Assembly: GCA_041984885.1 (NCBI GenBank)
Contig: JBHIXH010000001.1
Coordinates: 50,365 to 114,364 of the forward strand
DNA from: Gammaproteobacteria bacterium
GTDB taxonomy: Bacteria > Pseudomonadota > Gammaproteobacteria > Eutrophobiales > Eutrophobiaceae
Direction: 5' to 3'
DNA length: 64,000 nt
Part shown: one piece after another, positions 22,793-41,329 of the stretch
How positions within the stretch are numbered: position 1 is the first letter of the stretch
Layout: each line of letters starts with the position of its first letter
The notes under the pieces: model-generated
Databases searched by the model: none
The model's input: the letters and a program-made list of their open reading frames with translations, nothing else
What the model was told of the DNA's origin: nothing
Position numbers and translations under genes: made by a program

Positions 22793-22866
22793 TGGGGGTT
22801 CGTCTAATGGTAGGACTACGGACTCTGACTCCGTCAGTAGAGGTTCGAATCCTCTACCCCCAGCCA
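22793..22866 (+). tRNA. tRNA-Gln (anticodon CUG)
   Basis: Cloverleaf. Acceptor TGGGGGT/ACCCCCA with U1-A72 (a Gln hallmark). Anticodon stem ACGGA/TCCGT with loop CTCTGAC. T-arm AGAGG-TTCGAAT-CCTCT. Discriminator G plus an encoded CCA. Confidence 0.8.
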
Positions 22867-22910
22867 ATTAAATCAAATACTTATAAATACTTATAATTCT
22901 ATAATTCTTA

Positions 22911-22929
22911 TGTAAGCGTAATGTAAGCA
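22911..22929 (+). repeat. Tandem TGTAAGC(G/A) motifs near the island left end (candidate integrase arm-type sites)
   Basis: TGTAAGCGTAATGTAAGCAC. The same heptamer pair recurs at 41144-41161 next to the integrase gene. Confidence 0.4.
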
Positions 22930-22943
22930 CTTTATGTATTTAT

Positions 22944-25900
22944 TTATTCTCTCTTCCACAATAGGTAAATCGATGGGATTACAATCAACGTTAAGATCGT
23001 GGCAGTCACCATGCCCCCAACCATAGGCGCAGCTATTCGTACCATAACTTCAGATCCAGTACCGGTTCCAATCATAATTGGCAAAAGCCCACCAATGATG
23101 GCAGCGACAGTCATAATCTTTGGTCGCACGCGCAATAATGCACCTTCAATAACAGCTTCTTTCAACTCTTTGTAATTTAAGTTTCGGTTTTCTGCATCAG
23201 CACGTTGCTTATATTTCTTATATGCATTATCAAGAAAAACTAGCATCACAATACCGGTCTCTGCTGCGACACCTGCTAAAGCAATAAATCCAACAATTAC
23301 CGCTACCGACAAGTTGTACCCCAGTATGTATAACAACCAGATTCCTCCAACCAATGCAAATGGCAATGACGCCAGAATTATCATCACTTCTGTGAAGTTT
23401 CGAAAATGGATAAATAATAGTAAAACAATGATCGCCAAAGTCATCGGTACGATAACGCTCAATCGTTCTTTGGCTCGTTCTAAATATTCATACTGCCCAG
23501 ACCATGCAATCGAATAACCTGGAGGTAATGTTATTTGCTCGGATATCTTTTGTTTCGCATCTTCAACATAACTACCCAAATCTCGACCTATAGTATCCAC
23601 AAATATCCAACCATTTAATCGAGCGTTTTCGCTCTTTATCATTTCTGGTCCGTCTTCTATCCGTATCTCTGCTAACTGGCTAAGTGGTACACGTGCACCT
23701 GCGGGTGTAATAACGGGTAACATCTTCAGGTTTTCTACAGAGTCTCTAATATGACGCGGGTAACGTAGGTTGACGGGATAACGCTCCAGACCTTCAACAG
23801 TCCAAGTCACATTCTTACCACCTACAGCAGTATTTACGACTTCTTGAACGTCGTTAATATTTAAACCCAAACGGGATGATTCCAAACGGTTAATGTCTAC
23901 AGTGATGTAACGTCCACCTGCAACTCGTTCTGCATAGGCAGAAGCAGTTCCCGGAATTTTATTCACTACCTGCTCAATCTCACGACCGATATCCTGAATT
24001 ACTTTTAAATCAGGACCGGCAATTTTAATTCCTACAGGCGTTTTAATACCCGTTGCCAACATATCAATTCGAGTTTTGATCGGCATTACCCACGCATTGG
24101 CCAAACCAGGAAAGAAAACGCGTTGTTGTAATTCATGCCGTAGTTTTTCTGGTGTCATACCTTCTCGCCATTCACTTCGGTCCTTCAACTTGACTATTGT
24201 TTCAACCATTGAAAGCGGCGCAGGATCAGTAGCCGTATCAGCTCGACCAATTTTGCCAAAAACATGTTCAACCTCTGGCACACTGCGAATTAACTTGTCT
24301 GTCTGTTGCAATATTTGTTGTGCTTTACCAATTGATAAAGCAGGTAATGTCGTCGGCATATACATTAAATCTCCCTCATCCAATTCAGGCATAAACTCAC
24401 TACCTAGATGTTGTGCAGGCCACATTCCAACAATAGTAATGACAATCGCTAATAATATGATTGTCCGTGGAAATGCCAGTGCTAATTTAATGAATGGTTT
24501 ATAAAGAATAATTAATAACCGATTAATCGGGTTTTTATTTTCATTCATTACATGGCCACGTATGAATATCCCCATTAGTACAGGAACCAGTGTAACGGCT
24601 AAGCCTGCTGATGCTGCCATGGCATAGGTTTTAGTAAAAGCCATTGGTTTAAATAATCTTCCTTCCTGTGCTTCCAATGCAAAGATAGGCAAGAAACTAA
24701 CCGTAATGATTAACAAAGAGAAAAATAATGCAGGCCCTACTTCCCTGGCTGACTCCATGACAATGGCCCAACGATCACTTATCTTATCTCCCGCTTGTTC
24801 AATATGTTTATGAAAATTTTCGATCATGACGATGGCAGCATCCACCATGGCACCAATAGCAATAGCAATTCCGCCTAACGACATGATGTTTGCGTTAATG
24901 CCTTGTGCATACATCACAGTAAAAGCAGCAAGAATGCCCAACGGTAAACTGATTATGACAACAAGTGCAGATCGTAGATGAAACAGGAAAAGAGCACAGA
25001 TCAATGCAACAATGATAAATTCTTCAATTAGACGATGCGTTAACGTTGATATCGATCGATCAATAAGGGATGAGCGATCATAGGTCTCTACAATTTCAAC
25101 ACCTTCAGGCAAACTCGGTTTCAATTCTTCTAATCGTTGTTTTACTCTTTCGATCGTTTTTTTTGCATTCTCACCAAAACGCATTACCACGATTGCACCA
25201 ACAACTTCACCTTCACCATTCAGTTCAGCGATACCACGCCGTTGATCAGGACCAATCTGGATATTGGCAACATCCTTGAGTAAAACGGGTGTGCCCGTTG
25301 TATTCACACCAAGTGGAATCGCCTTTAATTGTTCGATACCCTTAACATAACCGGTCGATCTAACGACGTATTCCGCTTCTGCTAATTCGATTACGGAACC
25401 ACTATCTTCCTGATTACCGCCTTGAATTGCTTCTCTAACTTTACTTAGAGTCAAGCCATAAGCACGAAGTCGATCAGGATCAATCACCACCTGATATTGT
25501 TTGATATACCCACCTACCGTAGCGACTTCTGAAACACCTTCTACGGCTTGTAACTCAAATTTTAAAAACCAATCCTGTAGGGAGCGAAGTTCAGACAAAT
25601 CGTGTTTGTTACTTCGATCAACCAATGCGTATTTGTATACCCAACCTACCCCGGTCGCATCCGGACCCAGTGCCGACCTTGCACCTTCCGGTAACAACGG
25701 TGTTACTTGGTTTAGGTATTCAAGTACACGTGAACGCGCCCAATACAGATCGGTTCCATCTTCAAAGATAATATAGACATAAGAATCACCAAAGTTTGAG
25801 AAACCACGAACAGTTTGTGCGCCAGGCACTGATAACATGGCTGTGGTTAATGGGTACGTTACCTGATCTTCTATTACTTGCGGTGCTTGTCCTGGCCATA

Positions 25901-26054
25901 CTGTTTTAATAATAACCTGCACATCAGATAGATCGGGGATAGCATCAACTGGGGTTTCTCTTACAGTGTACGTACCGCCCACAGCTAACATGATACTGAC
26001 CAGTAAAACCAGAAACCGATTATCAAGAGACCATTGAATCAAACGTTCTATCAT
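22944..26054 (-). CDS. cusA: Heavy-metal efflux RND permease, CusA/CzcA (HME) family
   Basis: 1036 aa with 12-TM RND architecture and a conserved HME-RND N-terminus (MIERLIQWSLDNRF...). Operonic with the CusB-like adaptor and an OMF. Confidence 0.8.
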   Translation of the reverse strand: MIERLIQWSLDNRFLVLLVSIMLAVGGTYTVRETPVDAIPDLSDVQVIIKTVWPGQAPQVIEDQVTYPLTTAMLSVPGAQTVRGFSNFGDSYVYIIFEDGTDLYWARSRVLEYLNQVTPLLPEGARSALGPDATGVGWVYKYALVDRSNKHDLSELRSLQDWFLKFELQAVEGVSEVATVGGYIKQYQVVIDPDRLRAYGLTLSKVREAIQGGNQEDSGSVIELAEAEYVVRSTGYVKGIEQLKAIPLGVNTTGTPVLLKDVANIQIGPDQRRGIAELNGEGEVVGAIVVMRFGENAKKTIERVKQRLEELKPSLPEGVEIVETYDRSSLIDRSISTLTHRLIEEFIIVALICALFLFHLRSALVVIISLPLGILAAFTVMYAQGINANIMSLGGIAIAIGAMVDAAIVMIENFHKHIEQAGDKISDRWAIVMESAREVGPALFFSLLIITVSFLPIFALEAQEGRLFKPMAFTKTYAMAASAGLAVTLVPVLMGIFIRGHVMNENKNPINRLLIILYKPFIKLALAFPRTIILLAIVITIVGMWPAQHLGSEFMPELDEGDLMYMPTTLPALSIGKAQQILQQTDKLIRSVPEVEHVFGKIGRADTATDPAPLSMVETIVKLKDRSEWREGMTPEKLRHELQQRVFFPGLANAWVMPIKTRIDMLATGIKTPVGIKIAGPDLKVIQDIGREIEQVVNKIPGTASAYAERVAGGRYITVDINRLESSRLGLNINDVQEVVNTAVGGKNVTWTVEGLERYPVNLRYPRHIRDSVENLKMLPVITPAGARVPLSQLAEIRIEDGPEMIKSENARLNGWIFVDTIGRDLGSYVEDAKQKISEQITLPPGYSIAWSGQYEYLERAKERLSVIVPMTLAIIVLLLFIHFRNFTEVMIILASLPFALVGGIWLLYILGYNLSVAVIVGFIALAGVAAETGIVMLVFLDNAYKKYKQRADAENRNLNYKELKEAVIEGALLRVRPKIMTVAAIIGGLLPIMIGTGTGSEVMVRIAAPMVGGMVTATILTLIVIPSIYLLWKRE

Positions 26055-27424
26055 GGTGTCATCTCCATAGCAGACCCTGAATTTTCTTCAGTGGTTTGCA
26101 TACGCTGGAAGCTGGCTTTCAGACTGGCCTCTGAATCGATAAGAAATTGCGCTGAGACAACAACTTCATCTTCATCATTCAGTCCTTCAACAATTTCGAT
26201 CCAGCCTTCACTTTCAATACCGGTTTTTATTGTTCGTTGCGAAAACTTTCCCTGTCCTTGTGCCAGAATAACTCGTTCATTATTACCATCACGTATCACT
26301 GCTTCACGCGGGACAACGAGTGCATTTTCTTGAGGACTGGAATAAATTTGTACATGAGCAAACATATTCGGCTTCAATACTTCATCCGGGTTATCAAACT
26401 TAAGCCTTACTTTTAATGTTCGTGTGACAGGATCAAGTACGGGATAAATGTAATCTACAGTACCTGACCAGTTACGATTTGGTGATGATGGAACAGTTGC
26501 AGATGCTTCCTGCCCTTCACGAATCCAACCAGTTTGTTGTTCAAACACTTCGGCTAATAACCAAACGTTACTCAAATCAACAATGGATACTGTTTCCGTG
26601 GCAGGTTCAACATACATTCCTTCTCGAATCAATAGATCAGTAACAATCCCTGCATGGTGTGCATATATGTTTATTGTTCGTTTAACTTCTCGAGATTTTG
26701 TTAAAGCGTTAATCTGTGAGGAAGAAATACCTAACGATTTTAATTTTTGTTTAGATGCATTAATTAAACGATTATTTTTACGTTCCAATGCCTTGATATA
26801 TTCTTCTTGTGCATTGACTAATGTTGGCGAATATAGTGAAAATAAAAGTTGTCCTTTTTTAACACGATCACCTATAGTATCTACCGTAAGGTTTTCAACC
26901 CATCCCTCAGTTCTTAAGTGGACATGACCGATTAACGATTCATTGGGTGTGATATACCCCACCGTATCAATACGACGGGCCAAATTTCTTCGTTCAACTT
27001 TACTGATCTTTACACCAAGGTTATTAATTACTTCCGGTGCAATCGTAACGTTTGAAGATCCTTCTGCTTCATTCTCATAAACCGGAATAAAATCCATACC
27101 CATACTGTCTTTTTGAGGCGTATCGGAAGTAATTTCCGGGTTCATCGGGTGACGATAAAAAAGAACCCTGGAATTTGATTGTGTTGTTTTTGCCGTCGCT
27201 AATGGAACGAGATCCATTGTACATATTGGGCATCGCCCGGGTTTATCACTCGTAACTTGGGGATGCATAGGACAATAATATGTCGCATCTAGATGTTTAA
27301 CCGCATGTTCCATCGCCGTTTCCGGTTCTTGGGGCATATAATCCTTGAACCAACTAAAAGAAATACCTGCAATAATTCCAATAGCAATAACTAAAGTTAA
27401 ACCTGTCATGATAATTTTATTCAT
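26051..27424 (-). CDS. cusB: RND efflux periplasmic adaptor with N-terminal heavy-metal-binding domain (CusB-like)
   Basis: The YYCPMHP...PGRCPICTM motif is typical of Cu/Ag adaptor N-terminal metal-binding domains. A membrane-fusion-protein fold follows. Confidence 0.75.
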   Translation of the reverse strand: MNKIIMTGLTLVIAIGIIAGISFSWFKDYMPQEPETAMEHAVKHLDATYYCPMHPQVTSDKPGRCPICTMDLVPLATAKTTQSNSRVLFYRHPMNPEITSDTPQKDSMGMDFIPVYENEAEGSSNVTIAPEVINNLGVKISKVERRNLARRIDTVGYITPNESLIGHVHLRTEGWVENLTVDTIGDRVKKGQLLFSLYSPTLVNAQEEYIKALERKNNRLINASKQKLKSLGISSSQINALTKSREVKRTINIYAHHAGIVTDLLIREGMYVEPATETVSIVDLSNVWLLAEVFEQQTGWIREGQEASATVPSSPNRNWSGTVDYIYPVLDPVTRTLKVRLKFDNPDEVLKPNMFAHVQIYSSPQENALVVPREAVIRDGNNERVILAQGQGKFSQRTIKTGIESEGWIEIVEGLNDEDEVVVSAQFLIDSEASLKASFQRMQTTEENSGSAMEMTP

Positions 27425-28683
27425 AAGGTTTCTCCTGACAGGTATAACAAGTTAATGTGGCTTTTGAAGTATTTTAATTCTATGTCTAGCATTTCTAACT
27501 GCGTATTCAATGCCAACACCCTAGATCGAACTAAGGTCTCAAAGTCGGTCAGATCATTTTGATAGGCACTAAACGTTGCATCCTGAGTTTGTTCAGCTTC
27601 AATCGTTGCCCGTTTTTCATAGAGATCCAGCCTGCGTTTTAATCTATCTAAATTTGCATACTCAACATCGATCTGACGGGTCAATTCACGTAATCGATCA
27701 GAACGATTAAAACGAATAGCTATTTCTTCTTTTTTACTAGCAATCAATACCTTGTCTTGACGTTTGTCAGTAAAAATAGGTAAAGACACTTTAAATAATA
27801 TTCCGGCAAAGTCCGGCCCGGTTTGTAAGTCAAACTGGCTCGCTGTATTTTCAGTTACCATGAAGTCAATCATCCATTTTGGTTTATATTGTTCTTCTGC
27901 AATTGCGACTGACTTTTGTGCTGCTTCAACATTGGCATTCTCAATCGCAAGCAATGGATGAAACCGGGCATTTTCTATACTCACTTCCTGTGTTGGCAAA
28001 ACAGACAACTGAGGCAGTTGAGTCTGCATAGGTCTTGATGCATTTTCCGGTTGTATCCATTCTGACAACTCTGCTTGTGCTACATCAATTAAACCTTTTG
28101 TTTCTTCGATTTTGTCCTCGATAAAAGATAATTCAAGCTGTGCCCTTAATACATCATGTTGATTATCTCTCCCTTCTGCATACTGGCTTTCTGTGATGTC
28201 CGCCATTTCAGTAAACAATTCACGATTTAATTCAAGTAAGCGATTTTTTTCTTTCTGAAAATACATTTCAATGTAAGAAGTACGCACATTATTTAATACC
28301 AGCAAGCGTTGGTTCAACATGCGCGCATACTCAACATCCGCCATGGAATTGGTTCGTTCTGATCGGTACTTTAGTGTATCTCCTGGAGGAATTGCCTGAC
28401 TTAAACCTAACCGGACTTCGGTATCTTCATGTTCGTTCAGGTTAAAATTATTCAGCGGTACTTCGGCCAATCCAAAGCTTAACTCCGGATCAGGTAGTTG
28501 ACCATCAGCTATAGCACGTTCTTTTAAACTTTCTGAACGAGCATTATATTTTTTAATTATAAAGTCCTGATCCAAAGCAATTAGCTCTGCTTCGCCCAAG
28601 TCTAGTTCATTGGCAATGGTTTCTACCGATAAACCAATGAGAAAAAATATACATATATATTTTATAAAACTGTATTTACACAT
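27421..28683 (-). CDS. cusC: Outer-membrane efflux protein (TolC/CusC family)
   Basis: Signal peptide and two OEP-like repeats. Overlaps the cusB start by 4 nt. Confidence 0.75.
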   Translation of the reverse strand: MCKYSFIKYICIFFLIGLSVETIANELDLGEAELIALDQDFIIKKYNARSESLKERAIADGQLPDPELSFGLAEVPLNNFNLNEHEDTEVRLGLSQAIPPGDTLKYRSERTNSMADVEYARMLNQRLLVLNNVRTSYIEMYFQKEKNRLLELNRELFTEMADITESQYAEGRDNQHDVLRAQLELSFIEDKIEETKGLIDVAQAELSEWIQPENASRPMQTQLPQLSVLPTQEVSIENARFHPLLAIENANVEAAQKSVAIAEEQYKPKWMIDFMVTENTASQFDLQTGPDFAGILFKVSLPIFTDKRQDKVLIASKKEEIAIRFNRSDRLRELTRQIDVEYANLDRLKRRLDLYEKRATIEAEQTQDATFSAYQNDLTDFETLVRSRVLALNTQLEMLDIELKYFKSHINLLYLSGETL

Positions 28684-28756: not shown

Positions 28757-29167
28757 TTAAATCAGTAGTACGTTAAAAGATTTTAGAGGGAGGAGGATTG
28801 CCCTTTCAGGCGGTGGAGATATTCGCTCACTTGGAGGTGCTCTATTAGAAAGATTTATTTTCTGTTCAAAAGAAACATAGACATCTAGGAAATGTTTTTT
28901 CTTTTCGTTTTCCCCATGATTCGAGTCGCTGTTAATAACAACATTAAGCTCATCACAGTCACATGGGGCAAAACATTCTTTATCATTTGTATCTACAGAT
29001 GTTGAGTCATGACAAGGCATTGCCATTTCTTCCATCTGTTGTTCGGCCATTTGATTATAATTAGATGCAAAACAAGTCTGACACAATAGTAATAACCAGC
29101 TGCCGACAAATATCGATAACATCATTGTTGCCAATTTGTTCTGTATATTTTTTAATTGCATCAACAT
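28757..29167 (-). CDS. Hypothetical secreted Cys/Met/His-rich protein
   Basis: Hydrophobic N-terminus. Cys-containing segments (MPCHD...ECFAPCDCDE) suggest periplasmic metal binding. No family assigned. Confidence 0.4.
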   Translation of the reverse strand: MLMQLKNIQNKLATMMLSIFVGSWLLLLCQTCFASNYNQMAEQQMEEMAMPCHDSTSVDTNDKECFAPCDCDELNVVINSDSNHGENEKKKHFLDVYVSFEQKINLSNRAPPSERISPPPERAILLPLKSFNVLLI

Positions 29168-29252: not shown

Positions 29253-29516
29253 CTATAAATGAACGCCTATTCCAGCTGCTTTCAAAGCATCCGAATTAAC
29301 ACCTTTGCCCTGACAACAATCCGCAAGAACACCATTAATAGCCACCGCAGGCACTGATTTTATCCCTAACTCATTAATACGAGACTGAACATCCGCATCA
29401 TGGGTGTCATGAATAATAATCTCACAGGAGGGACAGGCTAGTTCATTAACCAAGTTAATCGTGTCCTGGCACACCGGACAACCTGCACTGAATATTTCAA
29501 CCTTACGTTTAGTCAT
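29253..29516 (-). CDS. Thioredoxin-fold protein (glutaredoxin-like, CPVC active site)
   Basis: 87 aa with a CPVC motif near the N-terminus and a second CxxC (CPSC). Resembles small thioredoxin-family proteins. Confidence 0.55.
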   Translation of the reverse strand: MTKRKVEIFSAGCPVCQDTINLVNELACPSCEIIIHDTHDADVQSRINELGIKSVPAVAINGVLADCCQGKGVNSDALKAAGIGVHL

Positions 29517-29527
29517 TTTACATCTCC

Positions 29528-30283
29528 TTAGGTAATCGATTTCGTTTCGTTTTCACAGGCAGCACAAGAACCACGATTACCTATTGATTTGATTCTTGAC
29601 TGCCATATAATGGATACCACTAAACCAATAATGCCTGTGTAAATTAGGATATTCATTTCAAACAAAGTTTTTCCAAGTAGAATAAAAACAGATGATATGA
29701 TGCCAAGATAAACTGGTCTATATTGTTTGTTTACCCTTGCCCCCATGATTAAACCTGTAATGGTTAATATTAAAAACAAGGTTAACAACGGTATTAGATA
29801 GGGCGTGTAATTAATAAAATTAATGCCTATAGACCCCAATAATCCAGTGTAAAGTGGCCAACATAACGGACATACTACCTTAGGCATTAAGGCAATTAAC
29901 ATGGCTGGGATTGCCGTTATTTTTAAACTTGAACCGGAGCTTTGAATAACATCTTTATCTTCCGTTGTCGTTTTTTGAATTGCACTGATTATTTTCTCTA
30001 AAGGTGGAACACCACTAAATACATTATCAGTCTGTGTATATAATCGACATTGGTTAGCATTGTTTGAATTTTTCGACTGATCAACATCGAGTCCGTCAAC
30101 CAGAATTGTTGGTGAACCATATTGACGCACATAGTCTGGAGAAGATGAGTCGTTCACCTCCCATTCCTGCCAATGAGGTCTAACATTAATTTTTGAAAAT
30201 GCTTGCAAAAGTACCTGACGCGTTGGCTTAATATTTGGACAGCCTTTCTCGTAAACAAACTCAACCAATGGCACTTTATGCAC
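29528..30283 (-). CDS. Membrane protein with N-terminal thioredoxin-like region and C-terminal TM helices containing CxxC
   Basis: An N-terminal soluble part (KGCPNIKP) is followed by 3-4 hydrophobic helices (VVCPLCWPLYTG). Overlaps the MerR gene start by 8 nt. Confidence 0.45.
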   Translation of the reverse strand: MHKVPLVEFVYEKGCPNIKPTRQVLLQAFSKINVRPHWQEWEVNDSSSPDYVRQYGSPTILVDGLDVDQSKNSNNANQCRLYTQTDNVFSGVPPLEKIISAIQKTTTEDKDVIQSSGSSLKITAIPAMLIALMPKVVCPLCWPLYTGLLGSIGINFINYTPYLIPLLTLFLILTITGLIMGARVNKQYRPVYLGIISSVFILLGKTLFEMNILIYTGIIGLVVSIIWQSRIKSIGNRGSCAACENETKSIT

Positions 30284-30677: not shown

Positions 30678-30711
30678 GGAAATAGCGCCTCTGCTAATAA
30701 TAATATGTTAA

Positions 30712-33700: not shown

Positions 33701-33854
33701 CAGTAAACACCTGGACAAGGTTAGGTGATACATCGGGAAAAGCATCAATCGGTAATTGTGTGTAAGCGCGATAACCGGCAATCATTATCAAGATGGCAAA
33801 CATCACCATCAATAATCGGTTATGCAAACTAAAGTCGATTAATTTATCAATCAT
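30759..33854 (-). CDS. czcA: Heavy-metal efflux RND permease, CzcA family
   Basis: 1031 aa with HME-RND architecture. Second RND pump in the island; operonic with a His-rich adaptor and an OMF. Confidence 0.8.
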   Translation of the reverse strand: MIDKLIDFSLHNRLLMVMFAILIMIAGYRAYTQLPIDAFPDVSPNLVQVFTETDGLAPEEIEMYVTYPVEVAMTGLPGIDNVRSVSNFGLSVVNIYFDDDIDIYFARQLVNERLQEAREQIPEGFGEPVMGPISTGMGLILFYYLEDTTGQYSLIELREIQDWIVKFNLQTVPGVTEILGIGGYEKQFHVEINPDALLRYSVSLNEVIERIRANNLNVGAQYIEKNSEEFIVRSVGLAKDIDDLNNVVIKTVDGSPIFLADLADVKTGGAIRRGLQTRNGVEEVIAGMVIKLFGTNSSTVIADVENKLSKINKILPEGVRIVPYYEQKSLVEACVKTVTDALIQGVVLVIIILLLFLGALRPSFVVAISIPFSVFFALIGMYVLDISANLMSFGGLAIAIGMMVDGGVVMVENVDRLLRKANSDEPVLSIVGRACCEVGRPIVFAIMIILIVFLPLFTLQGVEGKTFGPLAYAIALAMTGSLLFAIFIAPVLASFVMNKPKQKDSNHDEHQVPIVKWLLKIYTPLVRFFVHNRTIALIVAFVLILIGGAIFPQLGAEFTPKLNEGTIVVRLTMAPSISLNESKRNTLLVEKRLQEIPEITKVVTRIGRGEVGAHADPTNSAEMFVILKPNAEWRKPKDQSFIEDQIREKVKNIPGIQANLTQPIKMTVDELLEGVRAELAIKVFGDDLNILKRKADEIAAVVQEVEGAEDVQVDQVSGVPQLRIRPDRQAIARYGLNLEDVQNVISAAVGGVSAGQIFEGIRRFDIFVRYTPEARATKDDIRQILIETPDGIKIPLEQLAVIEELVGQRQITRQNNQRFITVQSNVVGRDIVTFVEDAQLQIDANIDLPPGYLVTWGGQYRLQQEANKRLAIVIPVTLLLIFIMLYSSFNSFKNATLIFLNIPLALVGGVVALWLSGQNLSVPASVGFISLFGIALMNGIVLITYFNQILEKGMSIDEVSIQGACLRLRPVLMTAITTVLAMIPLLLSPGTGSEVQRPLATVVVGGIVTSTILTLLVIPALYKWFSKNIKT

Positions 33855-33882: not shown

Positions 33883-35067
33883 TTAGTGAGCATGGCCATC
33901 GCCAAAGGATGACTTTTGCATTTGTGCTTTTAAGACAAACGCATTTTTGCTCACGTATTGTTCTCCGGATGCTAACCCATCCAATACTTCAACATGCGTA
34001 TGATCACTACGCCCCAGTTTCACAGGATGTGGTTCAAACCCTTCTTCAGATTTGATAAAGACAACGGATTGATTATCGATGGTCTCGATAGCTGTTTTTG
34101 GAATAACAATGTCACTGGTATAATCTGATAACGTCACTTGAACCGATACGAATAAACCGGGGCGCCATTTTTGATCTTTGTTATCAATAACGACTCGTGC
34201 TGATGCGCTACGTGTTTCTTCAGAAACTTTTGGACTGATGTAATCAATCACACTATCAACATCGGGGATGCCATAACCTGAAATCACACGGACGTGTTGA
34301 CCTGTCTTTATCTTTTCCAGATCTTTTTGATAAACAGTTAGATTTACCCAAATACGGTCAAGATTAGAAATGACAAACGGTCTACTTTGTTCATTTAACA
34401 ATTCTCCCTGTACTACATGCTTTTCAGTAATGACACCGGCACTTGGCGACCGTATTTCGTACAAGGTTAAATCACAATCATCATTACATTGATCGTCAAT
34501 TTGCTCGATCCCGATAGCACGTAATTTTTGTTTAGCCAACTTATACTCAATATAGGCGTTATCTTTTATTTGCTGTGCTTCCTGAAATTCCCTTTCGGAT
34601 GTTAACCCTTCCTTTCTTAATTCTTTCTCCCTTTCATACGTTGATATCGCCAACTTATATCGACTGTTGGCAGCTTCTGTTTCTGCCTTAATCTCTGCCA
34701 GTTCCCTACTCGATAACGTAGCTAATAAATCACCCGTCTTAACACTATCGCCTAATGTTTTATAAACCTGTTTGGTGATACCGGATACACGCGGCACAAT
34801 ATGAATCAATCGATCTGGATCGAGTGTAATCTCCCCCGGTAAAGTTAACGTTTCCCTAATACTGCCACTACCTGCCTTACCAAGTTTTATTTCAAACTCA
34901 TCGAGTTCCTTATCAGTAAGTACAAGATGATCGTCGTGTTCTCCCTCATGCTTATCTTGTTTTGCATTAGAGGTTTCATCATGTGCATGATCATGTTCTT
35001 CTTTCGCATTAGTATTAAAGCCAAGCAATAAACTCATGCAGATAGCGATACTCCATAAAACTTTCAT
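33883..35067 (-). CDS. czcB: RND efflux periplasmic adaptor with His-rich N-terminus (CzcB-like)
   Basis: Signal peptide. His/Asp-rich stretch (EEHDHAHDET...HEGEHDDH). Membrane-fusion-protein fold. Confidence 0.75.
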   Translation of the reverse strand: MKVLWSIAICMSLLLGFNTNAKEEHDHAHDETSNAKQDKHEGEHDDHLVLTDKELDEFEIKLGKAGSGSIRETLTLPGEITLDPDRLIHIVPRVSGITKQVYKTLGDSVKTGDLLATLSSRELAEIKAETEAANSRYKLAISTYEREKELRKEGLTSEREFQEAQQIKDNAYIEYKLAKQKLRAIGIEQIDDQCNDDCDLTLYEIRSPSAGVITEKHVVQGELLNEQSRPFVISNLDRIWVNLTVYQKDLEKIKTGQHVRVISGYGIPDVDSVIDYISPKVSEETRSASARVVIDNKDQKWRPGLFVSVQVTLSDYTSDIVIPKTAIETIDNQSVVFIKSEEGFEPHPVKLGRSDHTHVEVLDGLASGEQYVSKNAFVLKAQMQKSSFGDGHAH

Positions 35068-36401
35068 CTGATTGCCTCCTCAGCAATATATTCAGTACGA
35101 CCTCCCAACGATGATCCAATCAAGCGTTCAATCGCAACGACAACTCGGTGATACTCTGTCAGTGCATCGACATATTGTTGCCGTGTTTCAAAATAAGTAC
35201 GTTGTGCATCGAGCAAGCTCAATAAATCCAGTTTTCCTAAGCGGTAAATTTTTGTTGCTGCATTAAATGCTTCTTCTGCCCCGGGCAGGATTTCATTTTT
35301 TAATGTTGTGACTTCCTGATAAAGAATGTCTAAACGGTGATAAGCAACTAGTAACGCAGACCGTAATCGTGTTTCTGTTACAACTTGTTCTTTTGAAGCG
35401 CGACTGAGTTCTACTTCAGAGCGTTGAAAGCCGGTTTGCTTGTTATTAAAAATAAACAACGGAATAGAAATACTTGCCACCGCAGCGACATCATCAGTCT
35501 CATTGAGATGACGCAAACCTGCACTGACAGAAATGTCCGGAATCGTATCGGCACGAGCGAGATTAATGGCACTTTGATGACGGCTCACCTCTGTCGCCCA
35601 TCGAGCAATATCTGGATTGTTATTAAGCTTGTTAACGATTAAGGATAAGTCCGGTAATGGAGGTATATTGTAGAAATCTCCCAGTACCCTATTGAAGGTA
35701 ATTTCAGTCCCGCCCCAGCCTGCCACCAGTTGTTGTTTTGATATGGCTAATTGTCGTTCGGCATTCATCTGACTGAGGCGTGCTCGGGAAAGCTCAACCC
35801 TTGCCTTAATCTCTTCAAGCGGAGAAACCTTCCCAGCATCTACACGCTTCTTGACCGTTAGATAAATCTCATCGGCCAGTTCGTTAATCTCGTTAGCAAT
35901 CGTAAGCTTTTCCTGTTCACCAAGCACATCTGCAAAGGCCACGGCTGTTTGTGATAACAAATCCACTCGTTTAATTTCATAGTCCCATCGAGCCAAATCG
36001 CGATCTGTTGAGGCAAGTTGTCGACGTTTCATTCTCTTATCACCCAGTTCAATCACCTGGCTAAGTGCTATTGTGGTTTCCGCTGACCTGAACGTGCCGA
36101 TATCACCGGAACCCGCAAAGTTTTCTAATTCAATTTCTGCTTCCGGGTTCGGTAACAAGCCAGCTTCAATTTGATCAATTTCTTTAGATCGTATCGTCCA
36201 GGCATAGGTTGCTAATTCCGGATTGTGTTTCAGTGTCATAACAATCGCCTGCTGAAAAGAAAGATCGCCGCTCGGCTGAACCATCGGTTGATCAAATTCT
36301 TCCGGTGCAATTGTCGGTGGCAATAACAGCTCATCATTAACTGCCATGACTGTTGCAGTCATAAAGCATGCAACAGTAAGTACTAAAGTTTTAATAACCA
36401 T
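35064..36401 (-). CDS. czcC: Outer-membrane efflux protein (CzcC/TolC family)
   Basis: OEP-family architecture. Overlaps the czcB start by 4 nt. Confidence 0.75.
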   Translation of the reverse strand: MVIKTLVLTVACFMTATVMAVNDELLLPPTIAPEEFDQPMVQPSGDLSFQQAIVMTLKHNPELATYAWTIRSKEIDQIEAGLLPNPEAEIELENFAGSGDIGTFRSAETTIALSQVIELGDKRMKRRQLASTDRDLARWDYEIKRVDLLSQTAVAFADVLGEQEKLTIANEINELADEIYLTVKKRVDAGKVSPLEEIKARVELSRARLSQMNAERQLAISKQQLVAGWGGTEITFNRVLGDFYNIPPLPDLSLIVNKLNNNPDIARWATEVSRHQSAINLARADTIPDISVSAGLRHLNETDDVAAVASISIPLFIFNNKQTGFQRSEVELSRASKEQVVTETRLRSALLVAYHRLDILYQEVTTLKNEILPGAEEAFNAATKIYRLGKLDLLSLLDAQRTYFETRQQYVDALTEYHRVVVAIERLIGSSLGGRTEYIAEEAIR

Positions 36402-36493: not shown

Positions 36494-36805
36494 TTAAGCT
36501 ATCGGTGGTTGGTAAGGTGGTGGTCCTGTAATGGAGAGATAATCTTGTATCTGAAAAATCAGGACTTCATTTATTCGCTCATTCGCCGCAAATGAAATGG
36601 CTTGTACCATGCCCAAAGAATGTGAAGAGAAATGACAGCAGTGATCACAAGAGACCGAGTCAGTATCAGAATCATGATGCACATCCAACTCGTGAGCATG
36701 ACCTTCTGTTGTTTCTGCCAGCTCATGTGCATAAGCATGGAACGGCATGACGACACCCGATAAGATCATCAGAACCAATATGATTTTTGCTAAGCAAATT
36801 TGCAT
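36494..36805 (-). CDS. Small His-rich periplasmic protein, CzcI-like
   Basis: Signal peptide, His-rich segment (HELAETTEGHAHELDVHHDSD) and a CDHCCH motif. Located immediately upstream of czcCBA, as czcI is. Confidence 0.45.
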   Translation of the reverse strand: MQICLAKIILVLMILSGVVMPFHAYAHELAETTEGHAHELDVHHDSDTDSVSCDHCCHFSSHSLGMVQAISFAANERINEVLIFQIQDYLSITGPPPYQPPIA

Positions 36806-36870
36806 AACTTAAAATATGTATGAATTTTAGTAATTTTTCAACTTTTATGAGCTCCTATCATATAATTAAT

Positions 36871-36890
36871 TGATCACTTAAAAGTGATCA
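36871..36890. promoter_or_regulatory. Perfect 20-bp palindrome (candidate operator) upstream of the czcI-like operon
   Basis: TGATCACTT-AA-AAGTGATCA. Lies 66 bp upstream of the czcI-like start on the minus strand. Confidence 0.35.
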
Positions 36891-37125
36891 CTAAGCTCAA
36901 GCCCCTGACACTAGACAAATGCTGCGGTGCTACTACCCGCAAGTAAATAACACTCAGAAGGACCCGATATTTAATAGGAACCGGAAACCCCTAGTCTAAA
37001 TTACATCTGGGAAATAATCGCGAGACTTATACCCGTAACAATCAAACGGTAGAAGTACCTAATACAAATAAAATTATTCGCTACATTTTATAATCAGCTA
37101 TTAGTTTTATATATTGCATACTTTC

Positions 37126-38928
37126 TTAACCATTCTGGAGTATTTTTCCTGATTCAATATCATTAATATCTTGACTTGAAAATTTTGATTGTAATTGCTC
37201 TAAAGTAATATCAAGCCCTTTAATAGTTTCAACTAATATATCTATTACAGCATTATTTAATGAGGTATTTTTCCGTGGTTCTTGAACTTGAGTTTTGGGT
37301 GTTTCGTGAGTTTCTTTTTTTTCTAGATTTTTATTTGTCTGAGAAATTCTAACGTTAGAATCTATATTTCCCCCATTTCTCCCATTTCCCCCCAAATTTT
37401 CAAGTCGCCATGCTTGTGCCCTATGTATAAGGGAACCTCTTACTATCCTCATATCATCAGATACACGTCCTTCCCATCTACCTATTTTCCTACCAAGTCT
37501 TCTTGAGTTAATTTTTGAACCATCCCCAGCAATACTGAGTAATGAATCTTTCAATTTTTGTGTATCTTCATCTCCACCAGAAGTTGCATTTTGAATCATT
37601 GTGGCTACTAAGACTTCTTTTTCTCCATATAAATTGAACCAGGCCAATAATAATTCACCATGTTGCTCTCTCTCAGGATCAATTGTTTCAACTCTTTTCC
37701 TCGTTTCACATGGGTCTGTTGCACCTGACCAAACTAACGGATACCTAACTAATTTGTCCCATTCTTCAAATCGTCCAAAAGCTTTCAAACCTACATCAGG
37801 CATACCAGTATCTATATATGCTTTAATAATTGTCAAACCTGCATTTACAAGAGAAATACGATTTTCTAAGACATAATCCTTTATATTTTCTCTTTTAAAT
37901 ACCCTCTCCTCAGGATGCTCACTGGCTGGATCTAATCTAGATATCAACATTCTTGTTGATAGATCACCTTTCACTGTAAGGTTATTACCCGTCATTAATA
38001 AAGTTACTGCGGTTGATACACTAATCATTTTTGTTTCGCCTAATAAACGATCTCTATATGTCTCACTAGTAGAGATTGTACAAAGTGTTTCCCCGGAAAC
38101 CACTTGTTCAACATTATCCATCAAGAGCAAAGAGTCACCTGCAATAAGAATAGCTAAGATTGCTTTCTTAGTTTCTGATTCATCTCGTGGCTGCGTCATA
38201 ACTGAAGGAGGCTGTGCGTTTACTAATAAACTAATGATTGTGGCCAAGAGAGTTTTCCCAGATCCCATTATTGGAGCATCAATACCAAAGAATGGTGCTG
38301 CTGATAATTGCCATCTTACAAGTGATGTTAAAAATGCTGCAAGCCATGCTGCTCGTGCAGCAGAATCAATGAAAGGAAATTCGTTAATTAAGTCTTCGAG
38401 TAACAACCTTGCATTAATTGCATCGGTTTGTTCAAACTTATTAGGAATTGATTCCCATGACTTATATGTACTATATAGACCAGTACCATAATCATAGCCA
38501 GGCTTGATAATTAATCTACCTGTACTTGTAACTGTTGGCGCACCTAATAGTGCTCTTAAGACTGGTAAATTCCATTTACTACGTTCAATAAGGGTTGATG
38601 CAATATCACGAGGACAATCAATTTCTTTATAGTCACGTGATCTTGAATCATATTTTTTCCATGTACCAAATTTAGTACATAATTCTCGTATCGAACTAGC
38701 CCTTGAGGGAACGATTATGTGTAATTCATCAGATCGTTTTATATATTGATTATTGTTATTTTTGATTCTTGAAATTTCAACTAGGTATCCACCACGCTGA
38801 TAAATACCTGCGTCATGAAGAATTAGTAATTCTTCACATTTATCAACTAATTCGTGAAGATTACCGCCTTCTATAATTATTTCTGAATTCTTTACTTTTT
38901 CCCAAGAATCTTCACGAATATCTTTCAC
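37126..38928 (-). CDS. Putative mobile-element replication protein (phage/plasmid primase-helicase-like P-loop NTPase, DUF3987/VirE-like)
   Basis: Walker A motif (GIDAPIMGSGKTLLAT) and Walker B-like LLLMDNV. Genomic context next to AlpA and the integrase. Low-complexity Asn/Gly tracts (KNNNNQY; NGGNGRNGGN). Confidence 0.45.
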   Translation of the reverse strand: MKDIREDSWEKVKNSEIIIEGGNLHELVDKCEELLILHDAGIYQRGGYLVEISRIKNNNNQYIKRSDELHIIVPSRASSIRELCTKFGTWKKYDSRSRDYKEIDCPRDIASTLIERSKWNLPVLRALLGAPTVTSTGRLIIKPGYDYGTGLYSTYKSWESIPNKFEQTDAINARLLLEDLINEFPFIDSAARAAWLAAFLTSLVRWQLSAAPFFGIDAPIMGSGKTLLATIISLLVNAQPPSVMTQPRDESETKKAILAILIAGDSLLLMDNVEQVVSGETLCTISTSETYRDRLLGETKMISVSTAVTLLMTGNNLTVKGDLSTRMLISRLDPASEHPEERVFKRENIKDYVLENRISLVNAGLTIIKAYIDTGMPDVGLKAFGRFEEWDKLVRYPLVWSGATDPCETRKRVETIDPEREQHGELLLAWFNLYGEKEVLVATMIQNATSGGDEDTQKLKDSLLSIAGDGSKINSRRLGRKIGRWEGRVSDDMRIVRGSLIHRAQAWRLENLGGNGRNGGNIDSNVRISQTNKNLEKKETHETPKTQVQEPRKNTSLNNAVIDILVETIKGLDITLEQLQSKFSSQDINDIESGKILQNG

Positions 38929-38985
38929 AAGCTTATTCTTTCTTGCTTATCTGTTTCCCGGGAAACAATGTAAATTGAAAAATAA

Positions 38986-39243
38986 TTACCTAATATCGAT
39001 ATGACCCACACGAGATTTTTCGATAACTACTTTTAATACTTCTGGTTCGTATCGTACAGATCGTCCACGCTTAATATATGGCACACTAGGGTTAGTACCA
39101 TTTATATAACGATCACGTTGAAGGAAGGCAACAGAACAGTTTAGACAAAATGCAGCAGCTTCTTCATCTAAGAGATAACCGGTTTTAAGGAGTTCATTAA
39201 CTGTTAATCCATTGTATTTTAATACGATATGTTTGTTATTCAT
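38986..39243 (-). CDS. AlpA-family phage regulatory/excisionase-like HTH protein
   Basis: 85 aa with an HTH_17-like pattern (LLDEEAAAFCLNCSVAFLQRDRY...PYIKRGRSVRY). Typical position in P4-like islands. Confidence 0.55.
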   Translation of the reverse strand: MNNKHIVLKYNGLTVNELLKTGYLLDEEAAAFCLNCSVAFLQRDRYINGTNPSVPYIKRGRSVRYEPEVLKVVIEKSRVGHIDIR

Positions 39244-39296
39244 AATACCACCCTATAAGTTCAATGAAGCTTTAGGACAGTTTAAGAATTAACAGT

Positions 39297-39920
39297 CTAT
39301 TTTTTTACCTTAGAATTTATTTTTTTATCAGGCCTTAATCCTTCTGCAAATGCTTTAGCAATAAGTTTAGAAATATCAATTGGTTCCCTTGTAAATATTT
39401 TTACAAAGTTCTTTTCTTTACTTAATTTTTTCTCAAAATCCTCAGGCGTACCTAATTTCAATCTCTTAGAATGCCATTCTAATTCACATTCAAGTTCTGC
39501 TCTATCCTCAGGAGATAAGTTGTGATGTTTGATTAAATTATCAATATATTTTTTATTTTTAGTAATATGACCCTCAATGGTTTTAGTTGCCAAGTTTGAG
39601 TTATTAGCAATAAGTTTAATTGTTTTTTCATATCCATATTTATAATCTTCTCTATACATAATATATTCAATAATTATATTATTTATTTTATTTTCTTCTT
39701 GAATGGGATCACGTTTTATTCCTTGTTTTATTTTACCATTCTCTTTATGGATTATTGTCAAATCAATAAGATCTGTATATTCATCGATATTCAATATACC
39801 TTCTTTATAATTGCTTTGTATAAGTTTAATTCTTTCATGATATCCTAGTATTTCTATCCGTCTCTTGAGTTCCGATATGGCCGTCCACCGTTGAGTGTTT
39901 GTCAACTTTTTTCTCTTCAT
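39297..39920 (-). CDS. Hypothetical island protein (207 aa, K/N/I-rich)
   Basis: Intact ORF whose start overlaps the integrase stop (translational coupling). No recognisable family. Confidence 0.45.
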   Translation of the reverse strand: MKRKKLTNTQRWTAISELKRRIEILGYHERIKLIQSNYKEGILNIDEYTDLIDLTIIHKENGKIKQGIKRDPIQEENKINNIIIEYIMYREDYKYGYEKTIKLIANNSNLATKTIEGHITKNKKYIDNLIKHHNLSPEDRAELECELEWHSKRLKLGTPEDFEKKLSKEKNFVKIFTREPIDISKLIAKAFAEGLRPDKKINSKVKK

Positions 39921-41125
39921 TAAGCATTTCCAGTTTGTTTAACATTTATTATCGATGCAGACTTTTTCTGACCCGCAGATCTCAATATATAGTCAGTGAT
40001 TTGTTGCATAGGTTTTCTTAATCGTTCAATGTCAGCAACAATGTAACCTGCAGTCACATCAGGTATGGAATGATTGAGTAACCTTTTTAGAGCATAAGCT
40101 GGTATATTGAGACTTTCAGCAATTGTCGCAAATGTTCGTCGTAGATCATGAGGACAAAAAGTTACTTTTGATTCCTCAGCAACTAAACGATTAGCATTAT
40201 CTATGACACTTATGTGACCATTACCATGCCTAGCTGAAAATACATAAATTCCTTTCGATTTATTTATTCTGCTTTTCAGAATTTCGTACAAAAAATCACT
40301 CAGTGGAAGGGTATGGGATCTGTGATTTTTTGTATCCAGAACTGTTAGTGTTTTAGATTCAAGATCTACCTGGTCCACTTTTAAAGTTTTGGCTTCTCCA
40401 CTTCTAAGACCAGTAAATAATAATGTGAATAAGTATGCCCTCACATTTTCAGGTTGGTTTACTACTGCTGCAAACCAAGGTTTTAACTGAGATTGCTTTA
40501 TTACGGTTTGACGGCGTTCAATCCTATACCATCTTTTAGTATCTGATAATCGCTTGACTGGATTAGCAGTAATGATTGGAATTCCCTCCGAATCAGTATA
40601 TTGAATCATCGCATGTGAAAATATTGCTCTTAAATATTTCATAGCCAAATTTGCCTGAGCATGACTCTTGTCACCAATCTCCTTGTGTTTTTTTACACAC
40701 ATATCAGGCGTTATGGATAACAATGGTTTATTCATCCAGGACCTTAAATAACGACCAAGACAAGAGCGCATATCCATCACTGTTCGTGGTTTAAGATTTT
40801 TTGAATAAATATAATCATTAAGTCCATTTTCTACAGTTGCGCTTTTAAGCTTCGCTTTTTGTTTATTCGCAACAGGATCTCCGCCTTTAATTATTTCTCC
40901 TATTAACTTTCTGGCTTCTTTTCTTGCTCCATCTGGAGCCATTTCATGAGATTTACAAATTGTGAGTCTTTGAGACTTACCTTTAACCCTACGCTGTAGT
41001 ACGTAACTCATCGCACCGTTTGAAGTAACTCTAACTCCAAAGGACGGTAATTCATCGTCCCAAATAATTTGATATCCTGTATCAGGAATTGATAGGCTTT
41101 TGAGATTTGTTTTCGTTAGCTTCAT
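39920..41125 (-). CDS. int: Tyrosine-type site-specific integrase (P4-like)
   Basis: N-terminal arm-binding DUF4102-like region (MKLTKTNLKSL...YQIIWDDELPSFGVRVTSNGAMSY). C-terminal catalytic motifs (HDLRRT...; ...LNHS...). Adjacent to attR. Confidence 0.9.
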   Translation of the reverse strand: MKLTKTNLKSLSIPDTGYQIIWDDELPSFGVRVTSNGAMSYVLQRRVKGKSQRLTICKSHEMAPDGARKEARKLIGEIIKGGDPVANKQKAKLKSATVENGLNDYIYSKNLKPRTVMDMRSCLGRYLRSWMNKPLLSITPDMCVKKHKEIGDKSHAQANLAMKYLRAIFSHAMIQYTDSEGIPIITANPVKRLSDTKRWYRIERRQTVIKQSQLKPWFAAVVNQPENVRAYLFTLLFTGLRSGEAKTLKVDQVDLESKTLTVLDTKNHRSHTLPLSDFLYEILKSRINKSKGIYVFSARHGNGHISVIDNANRLVAEESKVTFCPHDLRRTFATIAESLNIPAYALKRLLNHSIPDVTAGYIVADIERLRKPMQQITDYILRSAGQKKSASIINVKQTGNA

Positions 41126-41143
41126 AGTCCGTCCGTTTAATCA

Positions 41144-41161
41144 TGTAAGCACTATGTAAGC
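41144..41161 (+). repeat. Tandem TGTAAGCA motifs next to the integrase start (candidate arm-type sites)
   Basis: TGTAAGCACTATGTAAGCA. Same heptamer as at the island left end (22911-22929). Confidence 0.4.
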
Positions 41162-41277
41162 ATAGTAATTAAAACTCCTTAGTACAATAACGGACTTGAT
41201 ATAAACTATATATTATTGTTTTATATGAGTATTAAAAGATAATAAAATTTATGTGTAATTATTAGAAATTAAATAAA

Positions 41278-41329
41278 ACGGACTCTGACTCCGTCAGTAG
41301 AGGTTCGAATCCTCTACCCCCAGCCAATT
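41278..41329 (+). repeat. attR: direct repeat of the 3' 49 nt of tRNA-Gln (+3)
   Basis: ACGGACTCTGACTCCGTCAGTAGAGGTTCGAATCCTCTACCCCCAGCCAATT is identical to 22818-22869. Confidence 0.85.

Follow-up and report, generated by a model that had tools for sequence, protein, structure and literature searches.

A tRNA-Gln integrative island with two heavy-metal efflux pumps and a satellite-like backbone in a gammaproteobacterium

The stretch of DNA analysed here (the window, 64,000 nucleotides of contig JBHIXH010000001.1, assembly GCA_041984885.1) belongs to a bacterium of the Gammaproteobacteria. It contains a genomic island which lies between an intact tRNA-Gln(CTG) gene and a displaced copy of the 3′ part of the same gene. 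The island joins a backbone of four genes, coding for a tyrosine integrase (int), a 207-aa orphan protein, an 85-aa small protein and a helicase, to a cargo of two heavy-metal efflux pumps of the resistance-nodulation-division (RND) type. It is an ordinary kind of genomic island, borne by a tRNA gene, which brings metal efflux into an AT-poorer host. An earlier reading of this DNA, made from the letters without database searches (the sequence-only reading), is mentioned below where the results bear on it. Related loci are given under their handles (L081, L176 and others) where they have to be told apart.

The tRNA-Gln gene and its displaced fragment

The ends of the island are described by the following features, with the coordinates of the window.

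22704-22756: terminator-like hairpin between rpsI and tRNA-Gln
22793..22866, plus strand: intact tRNA-Gln(CTG), the integration target (ARAGORN; Rfam tRNA model 62.4 bits)
22818..22869, plus strand: core of the left attachment site (attL), first copy of the direct repeat, 52 nt (exact repeat)
41278..41329, plus strand: core of the right attachment site (attR), second copy of the repeat, a displaced 3′ fragment of tRNA-Gln (exact repeat; no ARAGORN tRNA)

The two copies of the repeat, 22818-22869 and 41278-41329, are identical in 52 of 52 nt. Each runs from the first base of the anticodon stem (ACGGA) to the encoded CCA, which makes 49 nt, and includes three more nucleotides (ATT). The sequence-only reading had reported an exact repeat of the tRNA 3′ part at 41278; the repeat stands, while its length is 52 nt and not 49. 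A 25-mer of the repeat, searched with up to 3 mismatches, matches at two sites of the window only, and none of 100 shuffled sequences gave a match. The spacing of the copies from start to start is 18,460 bp. The DNA between them has a GC content of 38.6%, compared with 50.3% in the left flank and 49.4% in the right flank, which agrees with the earlier remark on an AT-rich region, and the lowest values inside the island (0.30-0.36) are those of the backbone end. All genes between the repeats lie on the minus strand.

The tRNA-Gln(CTG) gene is the sole tRNA found by ARAGORN in the window. The intact gene and the co-oriented fragment of the same gene lie on one replicon and a tyrosine integrase gene is located between them, with the Xer and integron models scoring far below their cut-offs. 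The proposal of an integrative island at tRNA-Gln is borne out by this arrangement of the tRNA, its displaced 3′ fragment and the integrase inside.

The fragment at the right end is not a gene. The 19 bases on its 5′ side (41259-41277) are all A or T, and it lacks the TGGGGGT strand which could pair with ACCCCCA. Such replacement of the 5′ acceptor strand and the D-arm by A/T, together with the absence of an ARAGORN call, excludes a second genuine tRNA, which the sequence-only reading had named as a possibility, and this candidate was rejected. The Rfam tRNA model nevertheless gives 35.9 bits to 41259-41316, above its gathering score of 29, although only model positions 7-64 are covered. Automatic annotation could therefore call a spurious second tRNA here, and the score of the displaced fragment calls for caution. 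Apart from the tRNA and its fragment, the Rfam scan of the island gives nothing above threshold.

Both attachment (att) site arms carry repeated motifs.

22875..22928, plus strand: P′ arm, with AAATACTTAT twice in tandem (22875-22894) and a doubled ATGTAAGC; candidate arm-type integrase sites
41143..41161, plus strand: P arm, with a doubled ATGTAAGC of 11-nt period, 18 nt upstream of the int start codon

The motif ATGTAAGC occurs five times in the window, and four of these occurrences form two tandem co-oriented pairs with an 11-nt period. The copies of the P′ arm are found at 22910-22917 and 22921-22928, so that the pair spans 22910-22928 and lies 93 bp from the centre of the anticodon loop; the distance of the pair at 41143-41161, on the other arm, is 134 bp. 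The pair on the int side is almost invariant in six related loci (L081-L087). Both pairs are kept in the sister island L176, one of them beside its intact tRNA, and an analogous doubled GTCTACAT is present on the int side in the island L173. The doubled ATGTAAGC on both arms is likely to represent candidate binding sites for the arm domain of the integrase.

Backbone genes, metal cargo and flanks

The backbone occupies the right part of the island, next to the displaced fragment.

39920..41125, minus strand: tyrosine integrase, 401 aa, with an arm-type DNA-binding N-terminal domain (Phage_integrase 66 bits, Arm-DNA-bind_3 41 bits)
39297..39920, minus strand: orphan protein of the backbone, 207 aa, with a start codon that overlaps the int end
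38986..39243, minus strand: 85-aa small DNA-binding protein, candidate excisionase or AlpA-equivalent (homology to the HTH_17 protein of L173, and position)
37126..38928, minus strand: D5-like helicase of superfamily 3 (SF3), 600 aa (fold match by AlphaFold2 and Foldseek)
36860..37040, no strand: non-coding block, conserved in L081 and L087, which contains two AGTGATCA boxes at 36871-36892; candidate replication origin or operator

The catalytic residues of the integrase (R...HxxR...H...Y) are readable in the translation, and the protein matches phrog_1 with 178 bits. It belongs to a very large family (5284 matches), and the best phage matches are prophage integrases of Acinetobacter and Moraxella, at 33%. 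The 207-aa protein, by comparison, is represented by 4 cluster representatives among 1.84 billion. It is 52% identical to its ortholog in L081 and 33% identical to that in L176, has no informative match in the Pfam, PHROGs, NCBIfam and PADLOC scans and shows no similarity to the proteins which occupy the same slot in L171 and L173.

The gene called AlpA-like in the sequence-only reading codes for the 85-aa protein. It has no Phage_AlpA match, and the likeness that stands is an identity of 41% (E 1e-10) to a 68-aa protein of the helix-turn-helix family HTH_17, located in the same slot of L173. In L171, this slot is occupied by a Phage_AlpA protein, with which the 85-aa protein does not align. 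Ten homologs are detectable; there is no Pfam, NCBIfam or PDB sequence match, and the PHROG match is weak (E 0.0013, unknown function). Homology and position make the protein a candidate for an excisionase or an AlpA-equivalent.

The 600-aa protein has no Pfam, NCBIfam or PDB sequence match either. Its PHROG matches are to the C-terminal parts of large phage primase-like families, and fusion to Prim-Pol, Toprim, PriCT or RepB-primase domains is frequent among its homologs. The AlphaFold2 model, built with 53 homologs, reaches a predicted local distance difference test score (pLDDT) of 88.5, and the top Foldseek matches are the helicase modules of African swine fever virus (ASFV) PrimPol, NrS-1, SaPI5 Pri-Rep, PriRep1 and the monkeypox and vaccinia virus proteins MPXV E5/VACV D5. 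According to the predicted fold, the protein is a D5-like replicative helicase without a primase domain. The earlier description of a primase/helicase-like P-loop gene is thus right as to the SF3 helicase, and the primase part has to be dropped. After a disordered linker, the helicase ends with a helical domain of ~45 aa (residues ~556-600, window 37126-37290). This domain is 36% identical to L087:13607-13807, within an otherwise unrelated helicase in the same slot, and it may be a family-specific docking module.

The non-coding stretch downstream of the helicase gene is 320 bp long. The paired AGTGATCA boxes are found 3′ of the helicase gene in all four family variants (in L176 at L176:4481-4515), and each box includes GATC. 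The block could serve as an origin, an operator or an origin of transfer (oriT).

The cargo fills the rest of the island, up to the intact tRNA. Its features are listed from the helicase side.

36494..36805, minus strand: 103-aa His/Cys-rich small protein before pump 2, with weak resemblance to CzcI
35064..36401, minus strand: outer-membrane factor of pump 2 (OEP 142 bits)
33883..35067, minus strand: periplasmic adaptor of pump 2 (HlyD_D23 135 bits; CzcB/NccB and IhpB models below their cut-offs)
30759..33854, minus strand: permease of pump 2, the second heavy-metal RND permease (TIGR00914 1114 bits)
30711..30742, minus strand: candidate MerR-type promoter upstream of the regulator gene, read from the sequence (TTGACT, 20-nt spacer with an imperfect dyad, TATAAT)
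30276..30677, minus strand: MerR-family metal-sensing regulator with Cys78, Cys113 and Cys122 (MerR_1, MerR and MerR-DNA-bind domains)
29528..30283, minus strand: 251-aa fusion of a DF-family-like N-terminal part and a MerC-like membrane domain (profile matches)
29253..29516, minus strand: 87-aa thioredoxin/glutaredoxin-like protein (Thioredoxin_3 33 bits, Glutaredoxin 23 bits)
28757..29167, minus strand: 136-aa protein, hydrophobic at the N-terminus, rich in Cys/His/Met over one stretch and rich in Pro in the tail (translation)
27421..28683, minus strand: outer-membrane factor of pump 1, the Cus-like pump (OEP 95 bits)
26051..27424, minus strand: CusB-like periplasmic adaptor of pump 1 with an N-terminal heavy-metal-binding domain, HMBD (HlyD_D23 271 bits, HMBD 61 bits)
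22944..26054, minus strand: permease of pump 1, CusA-type (heavy-metal efflux class HME4), for Cu(I)/Ag(I) (TIGR00914 1285 bits)

The permease of pump 1 is 59% identical to E. coli CusA. It keeps the methionine triad M573/M623/M672 and four of the five methionine-relay pairs checked, and its helix IV carries the signature AIG-DAA-IEN (it reads AIGAMVDAAIVMIEN). Judged by its sequence, pump 1 is a Cus-type Cu(I)/Ag(I) exporter; the identity to CusA, the triad and the helix IV signature confirm the cusCBA-like operon of the sequence-only reading as a genuine pump of this type. The adaptor scores 238 bits with the CusB subfamily model, below the cut-off of 390. No cusF or cusRS genes are found between the repeats by the list of open reading frames (ORFs) and the profile scans. 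The operon ends 74 bp from the att core.

The second pump had been described as czcICBA-like, with Co/Zn/Cd as substrates. A second heavy-metal RND pump is indeed encoded, and its DNA is 86% identical to czcBA of L087, but its permease departs from the Czc type. The protein is 35% identical to CusA and the methionine triad is absent. The helix IV signature of the classes HME1/HME2 (Czc/Cnr) is DFG-DGA-VEN (PMC3637150); helix IV of pump 2 carries AIG-DGG-VEN instead (it reads AIGMMVDGGVVMVEN), and the pump is for this reason not a canonical CzcA. Among solved structures, ZneA (4k0e) is the best match, with 694 bits compared with 649 for CusA. The 103-aa protein in front of the operon remains far below the cut-off of the CzcI model NF045614 (15.4 bits, cut-off 100, E 0.021) and matches DUF2946 with an E value of 0.003. 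In L081, L082 and L087, the 103-aa gene likewise precedes the outer-membrane factor, and the region aligns at the DNA level. A divalent metal is a reasonable guess for the substrate of pump 2.

The regulator is 38% identical to E. coli CueR and 41% identical to ZntR. Its Cys78 aligns with Cys79 of ZntR and Ser77 of CueR, and Cys113 and Cys122 lie in a CPG…DCP loop. The presence of Ser or Cys at the position of CueR Ser77 reportedly separates the sensors of monovalent metals from those of divalent metals (as described by Changela et al. in 2003). Among the subfamily models, only the ZntR model PRK09514 is passed, and barely (144.8, cut-off 143); CueR TIGR02044 (134.4, cut-off 147.4) and the MerR and CadR models remain below their cut-offs. 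The earlier label of a CueR-type regulator fails on the cysteine in place of serine and on the score of the CueR model. Long promoter spacers, such as that of the candidate promoter upstream of the gene, are typical of MerR-family control. The scan for promoters and terminators returned no more sites than shuffled sequence does.

The 251-aa fusion matches NF049942 with 63 bits (cut-off 70) over residues 7-101 and MerC with 29 bits over residues 128-228. With the three-Cys regulator and the thioredoxin-like protein, this fusion gives the region 29253-30742 a mer-like appearance, and MerA, MerT and MerP are absent from it. The region may serve the uptake of metal, its sensing or the handling of thiols. 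The 136-aa protein has no family match in the Pfam, PHROG and other profile scans and is a possible periplasmic metal-binding accessory. The gene list of the sequence-only reading is correct as far as it goes; it had missed the 207-aa orphan, the 87-aa thioredoxin-like protein, the 251-aa fusion and the 136-aa protein, as well as the affinity of the backbone to phage satellites.

The left flank of the island is of housekeeping character, with genes for a DegP-like protease, Hsp20 and Coq7, then rplM and rpsI, followed by the terminator-like hairpin and tRNA-Gln. The order on the right is a 74-aa ORF, NnrS, PanE, 5-formyl-tetrahydrofolate cyclo-ligase and a nitronate monooxygenase-like gene. 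The 74-aa ORF (41329-41553) overlaps the last base of the repeat with its stop codon, has no match in Pfam, PHROGs and NCBIfam and is probably not a gene. The first genes outside the island, NnrS (GC 0.44) and PanE (0.40) at 41557-43675, are below the flank average of ~0.50 and may stem from an older arrival of foreign DNA at this hotspot. Relatives showed no synteny with this region. The closest relatives of NnrS have 73% identity among genome contigs and 60% among metagenome contigs, and none of their contigs has tRNA-Gln or the flank genes of the window nearby. Exact look-ups of the NnrS and the helicase of the window returned no contig, and the 90% clusters of its ribosomal protein S9 and NnrS have a single member each.

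Related islands and the probable history of the element

The same truncated Gln fragment is found ~175 bp upstream of int in L081-L086, where the integrase is 75% identical to that of the window, and in L087 (74%), while the DNA outside differs. In total, the fragment adjoins int in six other loci. The locus L088 has 96.8% DNA identity to the window over 1.66 kb at the int end and continues with unrelated DNA; its integrase is split into ORFs of 243 aa and 152 aa. A complete sister island of ~10.5 kb (L176/L175) is bounded by an intact tRNA-Gln, which adjoins rpsI, and by a Gln fragment, which adjoins int. The core of L176 matches the slightly different tRNA of its own host, whose S9 protein is 74% identical to that of the window. 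The backbone common to both islands comprises the integrase (73%), a 208-aa protein (33%), an 87-aa protein (60%) and the helicase (53%).

The DNA which follows the helicase gene differs between these islands. In L176, it codes for a 665-aa fusion of a ClpP prohead protease and an HK97-type capsid protein (Phage_capsid_4 192 bits, phrog_133 581 bits). In the islands of the L081 type, Gabija GajA and GajB (603 and 589 bits) are followed by the 103-aa gene and the outer-membrane factor, and in the window island PADLOC reports no defence gene. In L087, the 103-aa gene, czcCBA and a P-II gene occupy the zone; the helicase of L087 differs as well (D5_N/DUF5906) and has only the last ~60 residues in common with that of the window. 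Comparison of these loci defines a family by its backbone of int, the 207-aa, the 85-aa HTH_17-like and the helicase genes, with an exchangeable zone after the helicase. The boundaries of the island, the identities of its genes, the relationships within the family and the different contexts of its members are all shown by the sequence data.

A more distant relative, L173, is a 9.5-kb island at tRNA-Thr(TGT) of Nitrosomonas sp. PY1 (BQXC01000001.1, 2211200-2220800) with an integrase of 48% identity. Its cargo consists of a RelE/MqsA toxin-antitoxin, the HTH_17 protein, a Phage_GPA-type replication initiator and a SmaI-type restriction-modification system. The tRNA fragment of L173 has diverged to 94%, compared with 52/52 in the window.

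Two further observations concern the DNA just outside the Gln fragment of the relatives. A second truncated tRNA 3′ part is present in L082 (JGI 3300025892, Ga0209630_10000332) at L082:530-700, in the same region of L085 and at L087:9600-9800. It begins with the anticodon stem, has a tRNA-Asn(GTT)-like loop (GTGACTGTTAATCAC…GGAGCCA) and gives no ARAGORN tRNA. Such tRNA-Asn-like fragments probably mark decayed or tandem islands at neighbouring tRNA genes. At L088:600-690 and L087:9700-9790, ~20 nt common to both loci resemble the left end of the window island and are followed by a different doubled motif (TGTTGGCTGT / TGTTGGCAGT) with an 11-nt period, after which an ORF follows in L088. By its appearance, this stretch is the left end of another type of island with the same tRNA-Gln core, and the two would form a tandem array.

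The nearest helicase relative in IMG/VR (51%) is located on an 18.8-kb viral contig, L177 (IMGVR_UViG_3300025159_000076), where the genes for TerS, TerL, portal, prohead protease and major head protein come immediately after that of the helicase homolog. This contig represents either a small phage or a capsid-forming satellite.

The locus is best described as an 18,460-bp integrative element, with a satellite-like backbone and a metal cargo, which was inserted in tRNA-Gln(CTG) after rplM-rpsI, and this description is very probably correct. The activity of the element, the position of the crossover, its replication and its route of transfer between cells we infer from its anatomy. The integrase would have recombined an attP site, containing the 3′ 49 nt of the tRNA and 3 nt more, with the chromosomal gene. 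The anticodon loop, with the inverted repeat of the anticodon stem on either side, is the probable place of the crossover. Integration would have made the tRNA whole again at the left end, while its original 3′ part came to lie at the right end. Excision or activation of the module is probably the task of the 85-aa HTH_17-like protein. The excised circle is probably copied by the D5-like SF3 helicase, with the conserved block just 3′ of the helicase gene as the starting point. Excision would give attP, with 41277 joined via the core to 22870, and an attB of the form rpsI – tRNA-Gln – TAAACGGATTC…. The identity of the repeat copies in 52 of 52 nt without selection on the fragment, together with the intact backbone ORFs, suggests that the element is recent or still active.

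Several points weigh against this description. No empty tRNA-Gln site was seen among the relatives of the host, which reach at most 73% (NnrS) and, for S9, include no 90% partner, and an excised circle was likewise not observed. In the Pfam, PHROG and NCBIfam scans of the island, genes for a capsid, packaging, a relaxase or conjugation are absent. Since its helicase has no primase domain, the element could replicate autonomously only with a primase of the host or a helper. The 85-aa protein, to which excision is ascribed, has no direct family match, its AlphaFold2 model is poor (pLDDT 66) and Foldseek returns no match for it.

The way in which such an element persists and moves can be explained differently. 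Gram-negative phage-inducible chromosomal islands (PICIs) have the genes int, alpA and pri in one direction, with the origin downstream of pri (PMC10111431), and the backbone order and single transcription direction of the island fit this layout. It is tentatively possible that the island is an active satellite of this kind, in which a helper phage induces the module via the HTH protein, the element excises, is replicated by the helicase and enters helper capsids, and metal resistance is spread by transduction. The capsid fusion of the sister island, the complete head and packaging module behind the closest IMG/VR helicase relative, the Gabija system of another sister (a typical satellite accessory) and the SaPI5 Pri-Rep among the structural neighbours of the helicase all agree with such a life cycle. 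In the window island itself, by contrast, late, capsid and terminase genes are absent, a cos or pac site is not recognised, there is neither a Phage_AlpA match nor a known helper, and with 18.5 kb the island is larger than its 10.5-kb sister. An integrative mobilisable element, transferred by conjugation with an oriT that has escaped recognition and with machinery supplied by a conjugative element in the same cell, would also combine integration and replication functions while having no transfer genes itself, a pattern seen in many mobilisable islands, and the conserved non-coding block with its paired AGTGATCA boxes could equally be the oriT. The profile scans find no relaxase, coupling protein or mobilisation gene, and the relatives carry phage genes rather than conjugation genes, which makes conjugal transfer a doubtful explanation.

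The element may also have been integrated once and have lost the ability to excise, the island being now plain chromosomal metal-resistance DNA. Such a fixed remnant is in keeping with the lack of direct evidence of excision, with a helicase without a primase domain, with the absence of late genes and with the split integrase of the near-identical L088. It is nevertheless unlikely, since the repeat has remained identical in all 52 positions despite the lack of selection on the fragment, none of the four backbone ORFs is broken and the arm motifs have been conserved; the split in L088 occurs in a contig of 2.9x coverage and may be an assembly error. Hardly conceivable is an origin of the second repeat copy as a genuine tRNA gene or as a local duplication unrelated to a mobile element. 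The Rfam score above the gathering threshold speaks in its favour, but the partial coverage of the model, the missing ARAGORN call and the A/T bases in place of the 5′ acceptor strand and D-arm oppose it, and six other loci likewise have this truncated fragment next to int.

To return to the integrative element with a satellite-like backbone, its family combines one backbone with a phage capsid gene in one host, with Gabija in another and with metal pumps in the window. This pattern suggests that the cargo zone is freely swapped by satellite-type elements and that metal resistance may move by transduction. The island might even be a working member of an undescribed PICI-type lineage of uncultured gammaproteobacteria, characterised by a tRNA-Gln target, a mirrored att site and an exchangeable zone, though the odds are against it; if it were so, phage satellites would be vehicles for heavy-metal resistance. 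The island also provides a clean att site with predicted arm motifs, and its three-Cys MerR-type regulator and second RND pump are offered for the study of metal specificity.

Comparison with known systems

In the tRNA islands of the Islander collection (Hudson, Lau and Williams 2015), an intact tRNA gene (tDNA) marks one end and a 3′ fragment in the same orientation marks the other, and a tyrosine integrase gene lies between them; the window island shows no essential difference from this definition. The integrase gene is located at the fragment end rather than at the tRNA end.

Pump 1 has the order outer-membrane factor, adaptor and RND permease in common with E. coli CusCFBA, in addition to the 59% identity of its permease to CusA. 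It differs by the lack of CusF and CusRS, by the N-terminal HMBD of the adaptor and by an outer-membrane factor which is recognised only as a general OEP. Pump 2 is a three-component RND system like ZneCAB (HME3a) and CzcCBA (HME1) of C. metallidurans, with ZneA as its best solved relative. The small His-rich protein which precedes the operon is a likeness to CzcI. The differences from CzcCBA are the AIG-DGG-VEN signature of helix IV, the CzcI match far below the cut-off and the absence of czcD and czcRS.

The predicted fold of the helicase is the same as that of the SaPI Pri-Rep and poxvirus D5-type helicases (PDB 7ola, 7pds, 8hwh; Foldseek probability 1.00), at a sequence identity of ~10-13%. 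The window protein lacks the primase domain and Pfam coverage. Its extra C-terminal helical domain of ~45 aa also occurs in the otherwise unrelated D5_N/DUF5906 protein of L087.

The sequence-only reading had seen the classic att geometry of phage P4 in the start of the repeat at the anticodon stem. This comparison does not hold. In the P4 record (NC_001609), the core has 20 bp (4078-4097), lies at the extreme 3′ end of leuX and reads GAGTCCGGCCTTCGGCACCA, whereas the core of the window has 52 nt and begins with the anticodon stem. The anticodon-centred att site is no hallmark of P4 but simply the commonest class among tDNA islands, with 2083 of 3919 in Islander (PMC4383910). The side of int is mirrored, too. 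The P4 gene is located 3′ of the core in the orientation of the tRNA, which places int beside the restored tRNA. In the window, int is 5′ of the core, divergent from it and 18 kb from the tRNA; since it lies upstream of the core and points away from it, int comes to stand beside the displaced fragment. This mirrored layout is common to the window, L176 and L173, while L171 has the P4-like layout.

Other traits are shared with P4, namely the Arm-DNA-bind_3 and catalytic domains of the integrase, the paired arm repeats on either side of a core which lies ~150 bp from int, and the combination of a small DNA-binding protein with an SF3-type replication protein. The two integrases are 23% identical over 349 aa (pairwise E 0.013). 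The window helicase is similar to P4 alpha only around the P-loop (E 0.025) and lacks its primase domain, and the 85-aa protein does not align with P4 ORF88/Vis. No family of the P4 genes sid, psu, delta, epsilon or cI is found in the window island by the Pfam, PHROG and profile scans.

From the Gram-negative PICIs, the window island differs in having no late or capsid gene, no Phage_AlpA match and no primase domain, in the 207-aa orphan between int and the HTH gene and in ~14 kb of metal cargo. In these satellites, the late zone is variable and often includes a capsid gene, and each att arm bears a doubled motif in the same orientation (PMC10111431). The window island has the same unidirectional succession of int, small HTH regulator and replication protein, then a conserved non-coding block and a variable zone, the same doubled co-oriented motif on both arms and, in its sister island, a capsid gene. 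In its layout, the backbone resembles the Gram-negative PICI satellites.

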